IMG/VR virus record: IMGVR_UViG_3300019762_000001 | Coordinates: 1 to 64,000 of that record | Origin: a virus | DNA length: 64,000 nt | Strand: one strand, 5' to 3' | Part shown: positions 803 through 23,055 of the stretch, in pieces | Numbering within the stretch: the stretch's first letter is position 1 | How the letters are laid out: every line of letters starts with the position of its first letter | Translations under genes and position numbers: made by a program | The notes under the pieces: generated by a model | What the model saw: only the letters and a program-made list of their open reading frames with translations | The model's database searches: none | What the model was told of the DNA's origin: nothing

Positions 803-833
803 CAAATATAAGAACAAAAAAATCCCGATGCAA
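803..833 (-). promoter_or_regulatory. sigmaA-type early promoter
   Basis: TTG-N20-TATATTTG. Confidence 0.8.
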
Positions 834-10194: not shown

Positions 10195-10244
10195 TGATTA
10201 ATTATTTATACTACAAATATAAATAAAATAATAACTCGATGCAA
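10195..10244. repeat. 50-bp direct repeat, copy 1 (contains promoter)
   Basis: 49/50 identical to 12355-12404. Confidence 0.95.
10214..10244 (-). promoter_or_regulatory. sigmaA-type early promoter
   Basis: TTGCATCGAGTTATTATTTTATTTATATTTG (TTG-N20-TAnnTTTG). Confidence 0.85.
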
Positions 10245-12354: not shown

Positions 12355-12404
12355 TGATTAATTATTTATACTACAAATATAAATAAAATAATAACCCGAT
12401 GCAA
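12355..12404. repeat. 50-bp direct repeat, copy 2 (contains promoter)
   Basis: 49/50 identical to 10195-10244. Confidence 0.95.
12374..12404 (-). promoter_or_regulatory. sigmaA-type early promoter
   Basis: TTGCATCGGGTTAT...TATATTTG, N20 spacer. Confidence 0.85.
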
Positions 12405-16264: not shown

Positions 16265-16295
16265 CAAATATATAAATAATAATAACCCAATGCAA
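16265..16295 (-). promoter_or_regulatory. sigmaA-type early promoter
   Basis: TTGCATTGGGTTAT...TATATTTG, N20 spacer. Confidence 0.85.
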
Positions 16296-17861: not shown

Positions 17862-18233
17862 TTATTTACCAGTATTACTGGAATAGATAATACCGGGTTT
17901 TAATTCTCTGCAGGTAACCTTGATTCTAGGGTGTTCCGCAATGGTTGGCTCATGTATTTGGAATAAAGCTAAAGCCTCAGATTCTGAAGCAAGTCCTGTA
18001 TACATCTTAGACCATTTTTTATTTTGATACTTCCACTCTAAAAGGTATATAGTATGTGTTGTACCATACCTTTTCAGATGTTCTCTGTGGGTTTGTATAT
18101 TACCTAATAGTTGATTTCTGCGAATCCTATATGTTTTACTAGTTGGGTTTTCATCTAAACCCTTTTGGTTCTCCTTGAGCATTTCTTCAGCCCGTTTGAG
18201 TAACTCTAATATTTCGAAAGCTCTTCTACTCAT
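17862..18233 (-). CDS. hypothetical protein
   Basis: ORF with ATGA overlap to the upstream gene. Confidence 0.75.
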   Translation of the reverse strand: MSRRAFEILELLKRAEEMLKENQKGLDENPTSKTYRIRRNQLLGNIQTHREHLKRYGTTHTIYLLEWKYQNKKWSKMYTGLASESEALALFQIHEPTIAEHPRIKVTCRELKPGIIYSSNTGK

Positions 18234-18994
18234 GGTATGAATCTTTTATTGTGCCATTTCCGGCTTAGTGCATGTTTTAGTTGTGGCTTGGTCTGGTAGT
18301 TATACTCCTTATAATCGAGTTTTATAGCACACGGTATCCATAGTTCTAATAACTCCGATCTAAACTTAGGCATAAGGTTAACTTTCTCGGATTCTAGTTC
18401 TTTCTCTATAGTATCAGAGCATAATTGGATTAACTCCCCAACTTTAGCACTAGCATAAGATGCAGCAGTGGGGAATAATTCACGGTTTACATTACCCTTA
18501 GATACCGCATAGGAGTAGTTAGCTCTATGATATTTCCGATATGTATCTAACTGCTTAAAGTAGTAATCCAGTATTATACCTGTAAGATATACATGATTCT
18601 CTGAACCCACTACCGTTATGCTCCTTATGGGGTTATCCCTTGACATAACGTATTCCCACATTATCCGGGTATGTGTTACCTTGCAGATCCTAGATAAGAA
18701 CTCTACATGTCTCTCTGTTACCTCCTCATGGAAGTATTTTTGGCATTTTAGGATGTTTACCGGTGAGGTGTATTTTACTACGATACGGGTATTAGTATAG
18801 GATATTCCCTTGGAATAGGTGGGAGTGTTGAATCCCCTATGTTCTTTTCCTTGTTCCTCTATAATAGCCCTTAGAGCAGCCACCATCCTATCGGGTATTT
18901 TCCAGGAGTGTTTTTCTGTCAACTTTAAGTACGGTACAAACCTTTGGCAGGCCTGAAAGGAATACTTAGGAAGTCGAGTTTGTTTAAAAGGCAT
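18230..18994 (-). CDS. hypothetical protein
   Basis: ORF; start moved to MPFKQ (18994) because 19027 lies within the -7 box. Confidence 0.75.
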   Translation of the reverse strand: MPFKQTRLPKYSFQACQRFVPYLKLTEKHSWKIPDRMVAALRAIIEEQGKEHRGFNTPTYSKGISYTNTRIVVKYTSPVNILKCQKYFHEEVTERHVEFLSRICKVTHTRIMWEYVMSRDNPIRSITVVGSENHVYLTGIILDYYFKQLDTYRKYHRANYSYAVSKGNVNRELFPTAASYASAKVGELIQLCSDTIEKELESEKVNLMPKFRSELLELWIPCAIKLDYKEYNYQTKPQLKHALSRKWHNKRFIP

Positions 18995-19024
18995 ATCTTG
19001 TAGTTTTTTATAATTATTATAATA

Positions 19025-19055
19025 CAAATATATATAAAAATATAACTCAGTGCAA
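19025..19055 (-). promoter_or_regulatory. sigmaA-type early promoter
   Basis: TTGCACTGAGTTAT...TATATTTG, N20 spacer. Confidence 0.85.
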
Positions 19056-19091
19056 TAATCCCTGGATCTAACCCATAGTGGGTTAAACTAA

Positions 19092-19124
19092 TATGGGCTT
19101 TGAGTGATTAGCCCAAAGCCCATA
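19092..19124 (-). terminator. hairpin, probable terminator after the tRNA-like RNA
   Basis: TATGGGCTTTG/CAAAGCCCATA. Confidence 0.65.
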
Positions 19125-19155
19125 AGACATGTTACTAAAGTTACCATTGGCATGA

Positions 19156-19265
19156 TGGTGTAATCGGAGAGGGATTTGAACCCCCGACTGACCCTAGGCC
19201 TTACGAATTTGCAATTAAATTCAGTGTACCTAGACTGCTCTGACCAGGCTGAGCTATCCGATTAT
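19156..19265 (-). ncRNA. tRNA-like RNA with about 28 extra nt in the anticodon arm
   Basis: AATCGGA/TCCGATT acceptor, TA, GCTC-AGCCTGGTCA-GAGC D arm, GGGGG-TTCAAAT-CCCTC T arm, 3' ACACCA; no 7-nt anticodon loop. Confidence 0.75.
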
Positions 19266-19268
19266 AGT

Positions 19269-19293
19269 GGGGAGGGACTTCGAAACCCTCCCC
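19269..19293 (-). other. hairpin with T-loop-like TTCGAA loop immediately 5' of the tRNA-like RNA
   Basis: GGGGAGGG-TTTCGAAGT-CCCTCCCC-ACTA. Confidence 0.6.
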
Positions 19294-19378
19294 GATCTAG
19301 TCTATATTTCCCAATTAAGACTCGAATGTTTAGTTTCTAATAAATAATACTGTTTAATACTAGGTTAATTACAAGGGC

Positions 19379-19975
19379 CTATTTTTTACCCTTTTTCTTT
19401 GACTTCTTTTCCTTTTTCTTCTTAGGAGCTTCAATATCAAGTTCCTCTGCGATTGCTCTTCTCAAGCCATCCTCATCACCATCGAAATCTTCTGGATCAG
19501 TTTGAAGATCGTTCTCATCACAGAATTCTTCTAGTTCCTCATCGTCCATTCCGGCAAGGTCTTCCCAGGTAGTTTCCTCTTCTTCCTCGTCTCCATCCTC
19601 GTCCTCATCATCGTCTCCATCCTCATCCTCGTCTCCATCCTCGTCCTCATCCTCATCTTCTTCCTCGTCCTCATCTTCTTCCCCATCCTCGTCCTCATCC
19701 TCATCCTCGTCCTCATCCTGGTTCTCCTTGAAAAGCTCGATGATATCTTCATCACTCATGCCTTTCATTTTCTTTTTGGTAGCCAGCTTGTTCTCGAATA
19801 AGAATGCCTTAGCTTCCTCTACATCGATTTCTTCTTCTTCTGAGTCAGCTCCTGTTGAAGGTAGGGTACCACCATTAAGTACTACCTGACGGTGATTGCC
19901 TTCAAAAGAAAGGATCATCATACCGTTTTCCAATTCCTCAACGTTAGTTAGTTTTTTACCTGTAAGATTTTTCAT
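19379..19975 (-). CDS. highly acidic protein with poly-D/E tract and basic tail
   Basis: about 50-residue D/E/G run; helical C-domain; KKKKEKKSKKKGKK end. Confidence 0.9.
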   Translation of the reverse strand: MKNLTGKKLTNVEELENGMMILSFEGNHRQVVLNGGTLPSTGADSEEEEIDVEEAKAFLFENKLATKKKMKGMSDEDIIELFKENQDEDEDEDEDEDGEEDEDEEEDEDEDEDGDEDEDGDDDEDEDGDEEEEETTWEDLAGMDDEELEEFCDENDLQTDPEDFDGDEDGLRRAIAEELDIEAPKKKKEKKSKKKGKK

Positions 19976-20035
19976 TTTGTTACGTGTGTTACGTGTGTTA
20001 ATAATTAATTATAGTTCTCAATAGAATTTCCAATT

Positions 20036-21001
20036 CTAGTAATTCATATCCTGTGTGGCCCTTGTGTACCCGGATAGCCCCCATCTCTCATGGTGAAGGT
20101 AGATATCCATTAGGTCCTCATCATTATCCCCATTTACCGGGCTACAGATTAGGGGGTGTGTTAGTTTACGATCTATAGATTGTAGTACTGACCCATTCCC
20201 AGGTGTAAACCCTATCTGGCTTGATGGTAAAAATCCCCTAGCGATTAACTCCTTGTGAGCTTCCTCTGGGGTATGGTTAGGGCTCATTGCCCTACCATCT
20301 GATGCTAGTGCCTTATAATACCGGGATTTTCTTGATTTTATCTTATCCCCGTATTTCTTATATAGTTTAATAGCAACCGGAGTTCTAGAATAATTCCCCG
20401 GATAGAACCTATCCAGTACCCTGATGATGTTTGTCATGATAACGAACTCACTTGGGTAGAATCTACCCTCCTTTCGTAGGGCCTTTTTAATCTTATGGAA
20501 ACAATTTACCGGGTTACTATAAGCCAGTTCATTATTCCAATAGTACTTAACATACCTGGTGATAAACAGGTTTGGCTTATGTTGTATGACTTCTTTTGGG
20601 TTCATCTCCTTGTATTGTTTTTGGTTATAAATGTTTTTCCTCCTGATCTTAGTTCTGTATTGTAGCTTTTGCCTATCAGTTAAGCCGGGTGGGTATTTAT
20701 ACTTAGAAACTCTGTACCTCTCGTCGAACCACTTAGCAGATAGTATGAACATTGGAGTCCTGATCCTTAAGTCTTTAACCTTGTTGTATGGAAGTATTAC
20801 AAAGGAATCAAGATGGGCTTTGAATTTTGGATGTAATGCCAAATTCTCTATCCATACATTAGCAAGTTCCTTAGTGTAGAAATGTCTACGTACTAAGACT
20901 GGGCTATTTGGGTTTTTAAAATCCACGGCATAGAAATACCCCAGCTTAATCTCGAAATTGCTGTCATACCTTTTATTCCATACTACCCCCTTATTTGCCA
21001 T
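20036..21001 (-). CDS. hypothetical basic protein with KYxYP module
   Basis: KYKYPPGLTDRQKLQYRTKIRR. Confidence 0.8.
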   Translation of the reverse strand: MANKGVVWNKRYDSNFEIKLGYFYAVDFKNPNSPVLVRRHFYTKELANVWIENLALHPKFKAHLDSFVILPYNKVKDLRIRTPMFILSAKWFDERYRVSKYKYPPGLTDRQKLQYRTKIRRKNIYNQKQYKEMNPKEVIQHKPNLFITRYVKYYWNNELAYSNPVNCFHKIKKALRKEGRFYPSEFVIMTNIIRVLDRFYPGNYSRTPVAIKLYKKYGDKIKSRKSRYYKALASDGRAMSPNHTPEEAHKELIARGFLPSSQIGFTPGNGSVLQSIDRKLTHPLICSPVNGDNDEDLMDIYLHHERWGLSGYTRATQDMNY

Positions 21002-21557
21002 CTCCCATGCTCTTTATAGCTTTATTAAACCAGATACCTATTGATTTTTCCCGGGCATCCGGAAATTCCTCTAATACCATTTTAATCACATCAGCTTTTG
21101 GAGTACCTTTAGTGGCAAGTTCATAAGTTAATGCTTTCTTGGTACCTTTAAATACTCCTTGCTCGCTACGTTCACGTTTTTTCTTTACGGTTTTAAACCC
21201 TTTTATTCGTGCAACTCTAGGAGCTCTGTCTGAGTCTTCTCCAGCATATGATAACCTTAGTGATGGATGTGCTAAACTAGGCTCCATAGTTTTACCAAGT
21301 TTCTCATTACGTTTCTGGATAAGTTCCATTACCGCCTTATCATGTTCGATTAGGTTTTGTGGTACTCTATCATCCAGGAAATGCTCCAGGAACCAGCTAG
21401 ATAGTTTGGGTACATCCCATTTTACTACCCGCCTTGGGGATAATCCCCTTAGAGCACATTCCTTTTGAAGAGCCCTAATATTCATATTCTCAAGTTCCAC
21501 AGCAGCTCTACCCTGCATGGTACCAGCTTTTACCTTTTTAACCTTCTTTCTTGCCAT
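20991..21557 (-). CDS. basic putative DNA-binding protein
   Basis: SAP-like 'MNIRALQKECALRGL' and a C-terminal HTH-like helix bundle. Confidence 0.6.
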   Translation of the reverse strand: MARKKVKKVKAGTMQGRAAVELENMNIRALQKECALRGLSPRRVVKWDVPKLSSWFLEHFLDDRVPQNLIEHDKAVMELIQKRNEKLGKTMEPSLAHPSLRLSYAGEDSDRAPRVARIKGFKTVKKKRERSEQGVFKGTKKALTYELATKGTPKADVIKMVLEEFPDAREKSIGIWFNKAIKSMGDGK

Positions 21558-21990
21558 GGTTATCCTCTATTTGTATAGTGATAATATCCTGTATAAACTT
21601 CTCAACATGTTCACAACCTGTGATGTTTTTTATCTTGGTAAGGTGTACTATAACATCCTGTGAGTTTAGGTATACCTCCCCAGTATCTACCGCACTTATG
21701 ATTGATATTCCCGTACTTGGTGAGATGGGTGGTACTTCGAGATTATGTCTTACTACCAACCCAAGGTCTTCTAATTTTGTAACCAATTCAGATACCTCTT
21801 TTAGAGGTGCATCCACATATACTTGTACCCGTATCTTTTTACATGCCCCATGTAAGACAGAAGCTGAAATAACTTTACCTGTTATAGGTGAGTCATTTAG
21901 TAGGTTAAGTACTTCTTTCGATTTGCCTAATTGAAAGAATCTGGGAGTTTTTTTAAACTCGAAAATGTTAAAATCTTTAGTATTACTCAT
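21538..21990 (-). CDS. hypothetical protein
   Basis: ORF directly after a promoter. Confidence 0.75.
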   Translation of the reverse strand: MSNTKDFNIFEFKKTPRFFQLGKSKEVLNLLNDSPITGKVISASVLHGACKKIRVQVYVDAPLKEVSELVTKLEDLGLVVRHNLEVPPISPSTGISIISAVDTGEVYLNSQDVIVHLTKIKNITGCEHVEKFIQDIITIQIEDNHGKKEG

Positions 21991-22019
21991 ATCTTTAGTA
22001 TATGTATTAATTAATAGTG

Positions 22020-22050
22020 CAAATATATATATTATAATTACTCAGTGCAA
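22020..22050 (-). promoter_or_regulatory. sigmaA-type early promoter
   Basis: TTGCACTGAGTAAT...TATATTTG, N20 spacer. Confidence 0.85.
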
Positions 22051-22068
22051 ATCTTGGAGGGTACTTTT

Positions 22069-23055
22069 TTAGACATGGAATTTTTCATCCTCGGTTCTTT
22101 CGGCTCCCTCTAATTCCATCTTTGAATCTCTAGCTTTAGACCTATTAGCTTTATCATTAAAATCTACTGTTCGTAGAATATGAGCTCTAGTTTTCTTGAT
22201 ATGCTCTATGGATTCATAGTTTATAGCTTCCTTTAGCATTAGTCTAAAGTTTTGCCAGAACTTCTGACCAAGCCTTGGAGTTTTTGTTTTCTCTACGAAA
22301 TAGTAATTAGCTATGAGCTGGCCAAAGTCTGTTGCTTTACCCTGTTTTATATACATTGGGATCCCAAGCTTACCAAAATAATCCCGTACTGTTTGGGTAT
22401 TCTTTACTGTTATTATTTTATACATGGTTGGCTGGTACTCAGGGTTTGGAAGAGCAACATAGACTCTATCGTGAGTTCCAGTATATTTGTATTTTTCAGT
22501 GATTAAGAAAAGTGTGGTTGAGGGTAGGGTGGTTATATTCTTTAGGTATTTCTGGAACCTAGCCTTAGCCCGTCTCTTGAATGCAGATGGTTCTTGTAAG
22601 TCATCCGGTAATATCCTAAAGTTATTCCATCTGTCGAACTCCATGATGAGTTGGAATAGATCCTCGCAAGCCTCATTGTCGGTATTAATAATGTTGAACA
22701 TTTCTTGGTATACCTTTCGATCCCTAGCAGTTCGTATCATATACCTTTTATCATCCAGCCTTCTTACAGCAGCTTTCATTGGAACTCTATCCTCCATGAG
22801 GTAGGCTAGGTATAATTTGAAGTTCTCTGATACTGGGATTCCCTCCGGGATAAGGGTATGATACTTATTATAATGCAATGTAAAAATCCGGATAAAGGTT
22901 TTAGCTCTATCCAGAATCTCCAGGTATTTATAATGTGATTTTTTCATTATCTCCCCAGCTTGCCAGGTGGATTTCCCAAATTGCACGGATAGGTTAAGGG
23001 CTGTTTGCTCTTCCTCTGTTAGTATTTTCCATGCCTCAATTCCATTCATCTTCAT
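22069..23055 (-). CDS. putative transcription factor with N-terminal sigma70 region-4-like HTH
   Basis: AWKILTEEEQTALNL...GKSTWQAGEIMKKS....EILDRAK pattern. Confidence 0.55.
   Translation of the reverse strand: MKMNGIEAWKILTEEEQTALNLSVQFGKSTWQAGEIMKKSHYKYLEILDRAKTFIRIFTLHYNKYHTLIPEGIPVSENFKLYLAYLMEDRVPMKAAVRRLDDKRYMIRTARDRKVYQEMFNIINTDNEACEDLFQLIMEFDRWNNFRILPDDLQEPSAFKRRAKARFQKYLKNITTLPSTTLFLITEKYKYTGTHDRVYVALPNPEYQPTMYKIITVKNTQTVRDYFGKLGIPMYIKQGKATDFGQLIANYYFVEKTKTPRLGQKFWQNFRLMLKEAINYESIEHIKKTRAHILRTVDFNDKANRSKARDSKMELEGAERTEDEKFHV

Follow-up and report, generated by a model that had tools for sequence, protein, structure and literature searches.

Phage tRNA genes are now explained either by codon supply or by the replacement of host tRNAs that defence nucleases have cut (PMC10264068; PMC11555353), and both explanations need a working anticodon. 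What, then, is to be made of a phage gene that keeps the whole body of a tRNA and folds shut the limb on which the anticodon should lie? Such a gene is found in the 64,000-nt stretch of viral DNA analyzed here (positions 1 to 64,000 of IMG/VR record IMGVR_UViG_3300019762_000001; hereafter the window). An earlier note, made from the letters alone, had described it as a tRNA-shaped RNA whose oversized anticodon arm resembles an archaeal bulge-helix-bulge (BHB) splice motif, and had proposed that it is a non-decoding tRNA mimic.

The tRNA-like gene and its genome

The gene and its parts are as follows.

19161..19263, minus strand: tRNA-like RNA gene (Rfam RF00005, 41.9 bits, full length)
19263-19257 / 19168-19162, minus strand: acceptor stem
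19254-19237, minus strand: D arm
19185-19169, minus strand: T arm
19161, minus strand: discriminator A
19193..19234, minus strand: over-long anticodon limb (7 bp, 4x4 internal loop ACAC/UAAG, 7 bp, loop AAUUGC)

When the whole window was compared with all Rfam families, the tRNA model RF00005 (gathering score 29) covered this 103-nt element from end to end (19161-19263 on model positions 1-71, 41.9 bits, E 1.7e-5); it is the sole tRNA-like match in the 80.7-kb genome. The minus-strand sequence quoted in the earlier note agrees with the window, and the three arms are as textbook as the note had said: the acceptor AAUCGGA/UCCGAUU has 7 of 7 Watson-Crick pairs, the D stem GCUC/GAGC 4 of 4, and the T stem GGGGG/CCCUC, with its loop UUCAAAU, 5 of 5. 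All 16 of these pairs are standard, and the stems as a whole, 21 of 21 pairs, are intact. Reading of the sequence also finds U8, A14, G18G19, A21, U54-U55-C56, A58 and the G15:C48 pair in place. The acceptor can be extended to 8 bp, as claimed, since U(-1) is able to pair with A73, both here and in the relative phage described below. The encoded CCA, which the note placed 2 nt out of register, is missing from that relative, and its position is probably due to chance.

What departs from the textbook is the limb. The D and T stems are 51 nt apart, where ~23 nt is usual, as the note had counted, and the anticodon arm holds 44 nt where RF00005 expects 15. Given the end-to-end model match, the textbook body and the 51-nt gap, the tRNA-like observation is real and well outside what chance would give. 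At its energy minimum the limb, whether folded by itself (-12.7 kcal/mol; z -2.3 relative to shuffles) or within the complete RNA, consists of 7 bp, a 4x4 internal loop, 7 bp and a 6-nt loop. No K-turn or loop-E motif was seen by eye in the internal loop. The succession of 6-bp, 3-bp and 6-bp helices separated by bulges that had been proposed earlier is an allowed alternative pairing, not the minimum-energy fold.

The gene does not offer a 5-bp anticodon stem with a 7-nt loop carrying U33 and a purine at 37, and ARAGORN in its default mode calls no tRNA in the window. When introns are allowed, it reports a tRNA-Leu(AAG) with a 25-nt intron (19228-19204) between positions 32 and 33. This call works only with a variable loop of 7 nt and two bases at position 26, and the intron can slide because a 3-nt repeat, GTA, flanks the insert; a tRNA-Leu that lacks the long variable arm is not credible. 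Intron-aware tRNA finders thus name such genes decoders without justification, here as Leu-AAG and in the relative phage as Cys-GCA.

Several other identities were tried and rejected. A class II tRNA does not fit, as the extra nucleotides sit inside the anticodon limb and the variable region measures 4-7 nt, depending on the frame. A group I intron in a bacterial tRNA is self-splicing and some 200 nt or more long; the insert here is 25-28 nt, and no Rfam family but tRNA reaches its threshold. The gene is not a tmRNA either. The source of the tRNA body could not be traced, the only matches being generic D-arm and T-arm similarities to phage, archaeal and viral tRNAs.

The source genome is rated complete; the virus record is 80,700 bp long and has direct terminal repeats of 123 bp. 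Its gene content identifies it as a lytic tailed phage of bacteria. Replication and repair are represented by a family A DNA polymerase (PolA), a gp32-like single-strand binding protein, a bacterial RecA, a DnaB helicase, a primase zinc ribbon, a Rad50/Mre11-like pair, a 5'-3' exonuclease and thymidylate-synthase-like enzymes, and the tail by a tape-measure protein, a baseplate J protein and a tail fibre with an S74 chaperone domain. The phage also encodes a NusG-like factor, and no integrase was seen among the ~50 ORFs scanned. Two further features, a BACON domain and a peptidoglycan glucosaminidase, are markers of the host.

A 31-nt motif, TTGCAyyGrG...TATATTTG, occurs six times in this genome and five times in the relative, with 0.3 copies expected (200 shuffles). 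In the window phage the copies lie at 833, 10244, 12404, 16295, 19055 and 22050, all on the coding strand and upstream of blocks of ORFs. Promoters of Bacteroidota follow the consensus -33 TTG / -7 TAnnTTTG, and the motif fits this type. The promoter motif, the glucosaminidase, the BACON domain and the bacterial RecA, DnaB and PolA together point to a bacterial host, which, from the repeated motif and the peptidoglycan hydrolase, is probably a member of the Bacteroidota. The sole public run that contains the sequence is a DNA run from a microbial-mat metagenome, probably the sample of origin.

Splicing, decay and a relative phage

Is the long limb an intron in disguise? We scanned for BHB motifs with the pattern helix-bulge(3)-helix(4)-bulge(3)-helix, the relaxed form of which needs only three of the four central pairs. 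Among cellular sequences that show this D-arm/long-gap/T-arm pattern, most of them from archaea, 55 of 120 contain the strict 3-4-3 motif; the scanner found none in the element. Two relaxed registers are present, each with three of four central pairs. One consists of a 5-bp stem, a central helix in which G32.A is followed by U33-A, A34-U and C35-G, and a 6-bp outer helix, with bulges A36-C37-U and G-G-C38 (ACU / GGC). Its 25-nt insert (19223-19199) lies at the canonical 37/38 position, so that excision would leave the 7-nt loop GUACACC; the earlier note had overlooked this register when it stated that splicing would give no 7-nt loop. When the 7+7 internal bases were randomised with the helices kept, the relaxed form arose in ~21% of trials and the strict form in ~3%. 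Because the strict motif is missing and the relaxed form appears this often in randomised loops, the likeness to a BHB is not beyond chance and gives no evidence of a splice site. The BHB geometry that the note had read into the limb fairly describes one drawing that the bases allow, yet it does no better than chance, and the relative phage lacks it.

The comparison with archaeal BHB pre-tRNAs (PMC4090602; PMC3241643) leads to the same result. The element shares with them extra nucleotides in the anticodon limb and, in one register, a 25-nt insert at 37/38, two 3-nt bulges and an outer hairpin. It differs in that the central helix has only three standard pairs and the product is non-canonical, and in that it belongs to a bacterial phage that has no splicing endonuclease and whose relative has no motif. 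Six-frame searches of both complete phage genomes with PF01974, PF01139 and PF09414 found no EndA (tRNA-splicing endonuclease), RtcB or Rnl2-type ligase, while the control genomes matched as expected. The data therefore do not support an archaeal-type BHB pre-tRNA, for which the strict motif, an EndA or ligase gene in the phages and a canonical product are all missing.

The genome of the relative (IMG/VR record 3300033186_000010, here G001) is 82.7 kb long with terminal repeats and is collinear with the window phage, with 42-77% protein identity across the region. It contains exactly one tRNA-like gene, in the same intergenic slot, which scores 58.8 bits with RF00005. The acceptor (GGAAAAU) and the anticodon stem (UUGCA) differ from those of the window gene: of the 21 pairs in the four stems, 12 have both bases replaced, and all 21 are paired in each phage. 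The pairing is conserved in the relative, in a comparison of two genomes only, which yields no real covariation statistic.

In G001, too, the anticodon loop is enlarged, to 19 nt, and folds shut (z -3.6) through a U32-A38 pair, a G-C pair, a 4-bp GUCG/CGGC helix and a GGGG loop. The closed helix of the limb totals 11 bp, compared with ~16 bp in the window phage. A BHB motif is absent, since the 12-nt insert is too short for one. Enumeration of all single excisions found none that gives U33 in the canonical frame, and the Cys-GCA that ARAGORN is forced to call, with a 12-nt intron, leaves A33 and C37. The two limbs are unlike in both sequence and detailed shape, which gives no indication of a common limb-reading partner. 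The genes may have been acquired separately and need not be orthologues.

These data bear directly on the possibility that the gene is a decoding tRNA with an archaeal-style 37/38 intron (25 nt, 19223-19199) spliced by proteins, presumably an unknown bacterial or phage endonuclease together with a ligase such as the host's RtcB. The relaxed register with its 7-nt product and the intron-mode ARAGORN call speak for such a tRNA, as does the distribution of the pattern: in cellular genomes, ~74 of 80 titled matches to the same D-arm/long-gap/T-arm pattern are archaeal, where the inserts are introns, and some phages carry long-limbed tRNA-likes inside normal tRNA arrays. A Bacteroides genome, used as a control, contains RtcB. 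In the window phage, a loop that is formally acceptable, with U33, R37 and the anticodon AAG, ACG or ACA, would result from several single excisions, which is not so in G001. These points are outweighed by the structure of the products and by the setting. The GUACACC loop has G32 and C37, which to our knowledge are essentially unheard of in working tRNAs, and it keeps 26 nt between the D and T stems instead of 23, and the register called by ARAGORN needs its two bases at position 26 and its 7-nt variable loop. The splicing genes are absent from both phages, the host is bacterial, and we know of no protein-spliced tRNA introns in Bacteria. A decoder with an intron is also disfavoured because the relative cannot be restored by excision. 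We consider this explanation highly improbable.

A second possibility is that the gene is dead: an insertion into the anticodon loop knocked out a working tRNA, and decay is still to come. This would account for the confinement of the insertions to the anticodon loop, for the GTA repeat that flanks the insert here, for the absence of the gene from more distant relatives, and for the fact that only two examples exist. It is harder to reconcile with the state of the two genes. Quite different bodies have been changed at the same place, with the 21 stem pairs and the universal bases all intact and G001 still at 58.8 bits, and both inserts fold into closing helices, not random loops. If so, the only two known members would by coincidence have suffered independent, recent insertions confined to the loop. 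Nor is the inserted hairpin a mobile repeat: IMG/VR holds 10 exact matches to it, every one in an unrelated context that is not a tRNA. A tRNA body kept flawless at one locus in two phages is not what neutral decay would predict, and we judge a dead gene to be decidedly unlikely.

The accessory status of the gene follows from two more distant relatives, which have only a terminator at this spot. Searches of viral contigs, metagenomes, proteins and cultured phages, with both flanking proteins, a conserved 321-aa neighbour and an 18-nt core of a conserved block (see below) as queries, found no further close relative than G001. An exhaustive profile search turned up one more homologue of this neighbour, the third (P0003, E 1e-86), which is not in IMG/VR.

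Operon setting and proposed RNA processing

The gene occupies a 350-bp gap between two co-oriented genes, in the following setting.

22020..22050, minus strand: operon promoter, a copy of the 31-nt motif of Bacteroidota type
19379..19975, minus strand: acidic last protein gene (198 aa, 43% Asp+Glu, pI 4.1, Lys-rich tail)
19269..19293, minus strand: G+C-rich hairpin with an 8-bp stem GGGGAGGG/CCCUCCCC and no U tract, 5 nt before the 5' end of the tRNA
19128..19153, minus strand: 26-nt block ATGCCAATGGTAACTTTAGTAACATG, one per genome, identical in the relative but for one inserted C
19092..19124, minus strand: intrinsic terminator, 13-bp stem with U-rich tail, the sole terminator-like site in 18800-22300
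19025..19055, minus strand: next promoter copy, which starts the following operon (ORF 18230-18994)

No phage-type promoter motif lies directly upstream of the tRNA-like gene; the nearest copy is the one at 22050-22020, four ORFs away. With this promoter, the sole terminator at 19124-19092 and the next promoter at 19055, the layout makes the tRNA-like gene the last cistron of a 3-kb early-type operon. The downstream hairpin that had been described as the element's own is the terminator of the whole operon.

The four operon proteins match no Pfam family. The sole PHROG match in the operon is that of the 198-aa acidic protein to PHROG 30618, of unknown function; this protein is 45% identical to the product of the gene at the same position in the relative. 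The structure of the conserved 321-aa neighbour could be modelled with confidence (pLDDT 83.5), but nothing in the PDB matched it at E <= 0.001, and the protein atlas held nothing usable for the downstream gene.

Both phages share the same order of hairpin, ~5 nt, tRNA-like gene, conserved block, terminator and next promoter, and both have U at -1. The 26-nt block is the most conserved non-coding sequence at the locus, though the tRNA-like genes next to it differ completely. It is not conserved as a peptide, since the indel shifts the frame. A wider search with its 18-nt core found only chance matches in coding DNA, and neither the block nor the insert or the relative's loop has antisense targets in the two phage genomes beyond chance or shared between them.

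This layout is the basis of the main rival to a mimic, a processing handle that acts in cis. Here the tRNA shape would do no more than tell RNase P and RNase Z where to cut, within a processing and stability module. The cut would end the early mRNA after the protective hairpin, the limb being irrelevant and free to vary, and it would free the 26-nt block with the terminator hairpin as a small RNA or a regulatory site. The shared layout and the strong conservation of the block beside wholly different tRNA-like genes are what such a module would lead one to expect. Bacterial RNase P favours U at -1, the base present in both phages. The downstream region folds as a single-stranded stretch followed by a terminator, the typical form of a small RNA, and the phage's NusG-like factor could read through the hairpins. 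A cutting signal, however, needs no elongated, paired limb, and both limbs are more stable than shuffled sequences (z -2.3 and -3.6). The more distant relatives make do with a terminator alone, searches of both phages gave the block no conserved target, and in G001 it lies 150 nt from the tRNA. We rate this explanation as unlikely.

Candidate roles and known analogues

Our preferred explanation, with a confidence that falls a little short of even, is that the element is a selected, non-decoding tRNA mimic, as the earlier note had suggested. It fits best in view of the closed limb of the relative, the missing splicing genes and the bacterial host. All the roles that the note had offered (a decoy for anticodon nucleases, a ligand for a synthetase, the ribosome or RelA, a processing element) are still candidates. 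Both phages keep a flawless body and a closed anticodon end while their sequences are free to change, and this pattern is what favours a mimic.

In the mechanism that we propose, the host RNA polymerase would transcribe the element as the last cistron of the early operon, from the promoter at 22050 to the terminator at 19092. Because its acceptor, D arm, T arm and elbow match those of a genuine tRNA, RNase P would be expected to cut before A1 and RNase Z, or trimming, to generate the end after A73. The product would be an L-shaped RNA of ~105 nt with an anticodon limb in the form of a closed rod of ~16 bp interrupted by the internal loop. Such a rod cannot present a 7-nt anticodon loop, so no codon would be read. 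The RNA would act in trans through its tRNA body, by tying up a tRNA-recognising factor of the host. The likeliest class of partner may be a tRNA-cutting defence nuclease, which would bind the body and find no single-stranded loop to cut; a host RNA surveillance protein of the Ro60/Rsr type is a second candidate. A decoy role against tRNA-cutting defences is plausible, and the early expression suggested by the operon, the accessory status of the gene and the limb without a single-stranded loop are all consistent with it.

Like ordinary phage tRNAs, the element has a full cloverleaf body that passes RF00005, is an accessory gene of a lytic phage and has no promoter of its own. Theirs, in contrast, is a 5-bp stem with a 7-nt loop that decodes, and they escape nucleases by point changes in the loop (PMC10264068; PMC11555353). 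In the element the loop is replaced by a closed helix, which rules out decoding unless the insert is excised. A tRNA that has no anticodon loop in two diverged genomes suggests that the tRNA shape itself is used, as a decoy, a ligand or a processing handle. If a partner is found, this would add an RNA-based mechanism to the conflict between phage and host, and it would explain the many tRNAs that phage annotations flag as 'pseudo' or intron-containing. Full-text literature searches brought up no account of tRNA mimics from phages whose anticodon limb is closed.

Are there others? A pattern scan of IMG/VR for D and T arms 44-60 nt apart returned 107 loci. Many of these are tRNA-Tyr genes of giant viruses with ordinary introns, and others lie on phage contigs, where the anticodon limb forms one continuous hairpin of 17-21 bp. 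In L004, for example, the 5-bp stem continues through a G.A pair into a 15-bp helix with a UUCG loop; further examples are L072, L027, L089 and L061. The six long-limbed phage examples that were scanned, as well as the pair L047/L087, pass the RF00005 threshold, and L089 has no match at the gathering score. The orthologues L047 and L087 have a common body and a common hairpin stem (GGGUGGUAAUG/CAUUACCACCC), while their single-stranded remnants differ, so that they share no anticodon. We found no kinship between these long-limbed phage contigs and the window phage. It is conceivable, though on balance doubtful, that this element and the long-limbed tRNA-likes of other phage contigs form one broad, undescribed class of 'capped-anticodon' tRNA mimics, a phage RNA counter-defence made of non-cleavable competitive inhibitors, in which the intact body would draw in tRNA-cutting nucleases or another tRNA-reading factor.

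A more specific version of the surveillance-protein idea treats the element as a Y-RNA-like partner of the host's Ro60/Rsr, that is, as a circular permutation of the YrlA design, which would recruit or block the host's Rsr-exonuclease machinery. YrlA RNAs are found in phages as well, and at least one of them is processed by RNase P and receives CCA (PMC4201824). Like the element, YrlA is a non-decoding RNA in which tRNA-like D and T arms and an acceptor sit on a long helix with internal loops. The topology is the reverse: YrlA is permuted, with its acceptor closed by a loop and its ends in the long stem, whereas in the element the acceptor is open and the limb closed (PMC4201824). Since it places a tRNA-like body on a long helix and is likewise found in phages, YrlA is, as far as the analogy goes, the nearest functional analogue.

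Identity is another matter. A search with 401 nt gave a weak, partial match to YrlA (RF02553; 23.7 bits, E 0.008) that is far below the cut-off of 69 and aligns the upstream hairpin, not the real T arm. Of the Rfam families to which the earlier note had pointed, tRNA is matched, which is trivial for a tRNA-shaped RNA, and YrlA is not. With this score, the different topology and no TROVE gene, YrlA identity is rejected. Six-frame searches of both complete phage genomes found no TROVE (Ro60) protein, although the control genome matched, and the two phages have no conserved Ro-binding sequence in common. In favour of the idea, that control, Bacteroides, does have a TROVE protein, and one unrelated phage with long-limbed tRNA-likes encodes TROVE as well. 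This is one of five such phage fragments; the other four, which are incomplete, show no TROVE gene, and no association of long-limbed tRNA-likes with Ro60 is established. We give a Y-RNA-like partner of Ro60 only a very slight probability and retain the non-decoding mimic of tRNA as the better reading.

A parallel in design comes from the laboratory. Engineered 'tRNA scaffolds' are constructs that carry a chosen hairpin in place of the anticodon loop, and we found no natural phage counterpart of them in the literature searched. The element resembles them in using a tRNA body for processing and stability and in continuing the anticodon stem into an inserted helix.

Conserved block at the operon terminator

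Directly 5' of the terminator of the operon that ends in the tRNA-like gene lies a 26-nt block, ATGCCAATGGTAACTTTAGTAACATG, present once in the window phage and once in its close collinear relative. The two copies differ by a single inserted C and are otherwise the same sequence, whereas the adjoining tRNA-like genes and terminator stems are wholly different between the two phages. The block contains the direct repeat GTAAC-N4-GTAAC, and comparison of the window phage with the relative revealed no peptide-level conservation of it. One possibility is that it serves as the seed of a trailer small RNA; another is that the phage's own NusG-like protein uses it as a site of antitermination or recruitment. 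The relative carries an additional 150 nt that separate its tRNA-like gene from the block; within this stretch the word GGYTAATC recurs and UAAUCCC pairs with GGGAUUA in a hairpin. A match in Rfam was not found for it.

The block and its surroundings (L110, locus in the relative)
19128-19153 (-), 26-nt block in the window
L110:3456-3482, counterpart of the block
L110:3302-3455, additional 150 nt

Promoters and proteins of the early region

Copies of a 31-nt motif, TTGCAyyGrG...TATATTTG, split the early region into short operons. The motif is a promoter motif of the type found in Bacteroidota (-33/-7) and is present five times in the relative. The operon of the tRNA-like gene encodes, among others, an acidic and a basic protein. 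The acidic one consists of 43% Asp and Glu, in part as long runs of D/E, and its C-terminal tail is rich in Lys. Its distant homologues in L108 and L109 resemble it only in the C-terminal third; it is possibly a nucleic-acid mimic. For the basic protein, about 30 distant homologues were found in a library of 1.8 billion proteins. Its AlphaFold model is confident (pLDDT 83.5, pTM 0.79), and a Foldseek search of this model against the PDB returned nothing at E ≤ 0.001; the fold is apparently new.

Promoter motif and protein genes in the window
803-833, 10214-10244, 12374-12404, 16265-16295, 19025-19055, 22020-22050 (all -), 31-nt motif
19379-19975 (-), acidic 198-aa protein, immediately 5' of the tRNA-like gene
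20036-21001 (-), basic 321-aa protein

Long-limbed tRNA-like genes on other contigs

Rfam-positive tRNA bodies in which a single 17-21-bp hairpin forms the anticodon limb were found on phage contigs unrelated to the window. In the orthologous pair L047/L087 the hairpin stem is retained and no anticodon is. Some arrays also contain tRNA matches of 130-134 nt. The phage fragment L087 combines several long-limbed tRNA-likes with a TROVE (Ro60) domain protein, and a DUF805b RNA motif (RF02914, 40.8 bits) lies directly downstream of its gene.

Features on other phage contigs
L004:5494-5596, L072:5573-5673, L027:7885-7987, L047:2432-2535, L087:14619-14722, long-limbed tRNA bodies
L087:13040-13169, L087:13548-13681, L047:2982-3114, 130-134-nt tRNA matches
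L087:555-2168 (-), 537-aa TROVE-domain protein (28 bits, cut-off 23)
L087:424-458 (-), DUF805b motif

Genome contigs L155 (or L189) from Lachnospiraceae and Leptospira, the former a MAG, provide rare bacterial examples of a tRNA body whose long anticodon limb is closed. Pattern matches L015, L018, L037, L070 and L106 are phage tRNA-Ile(UAU) genes in which the variable region forms a second hairpin; its loop, CUGAUAA, resembles a GAU anticodon.
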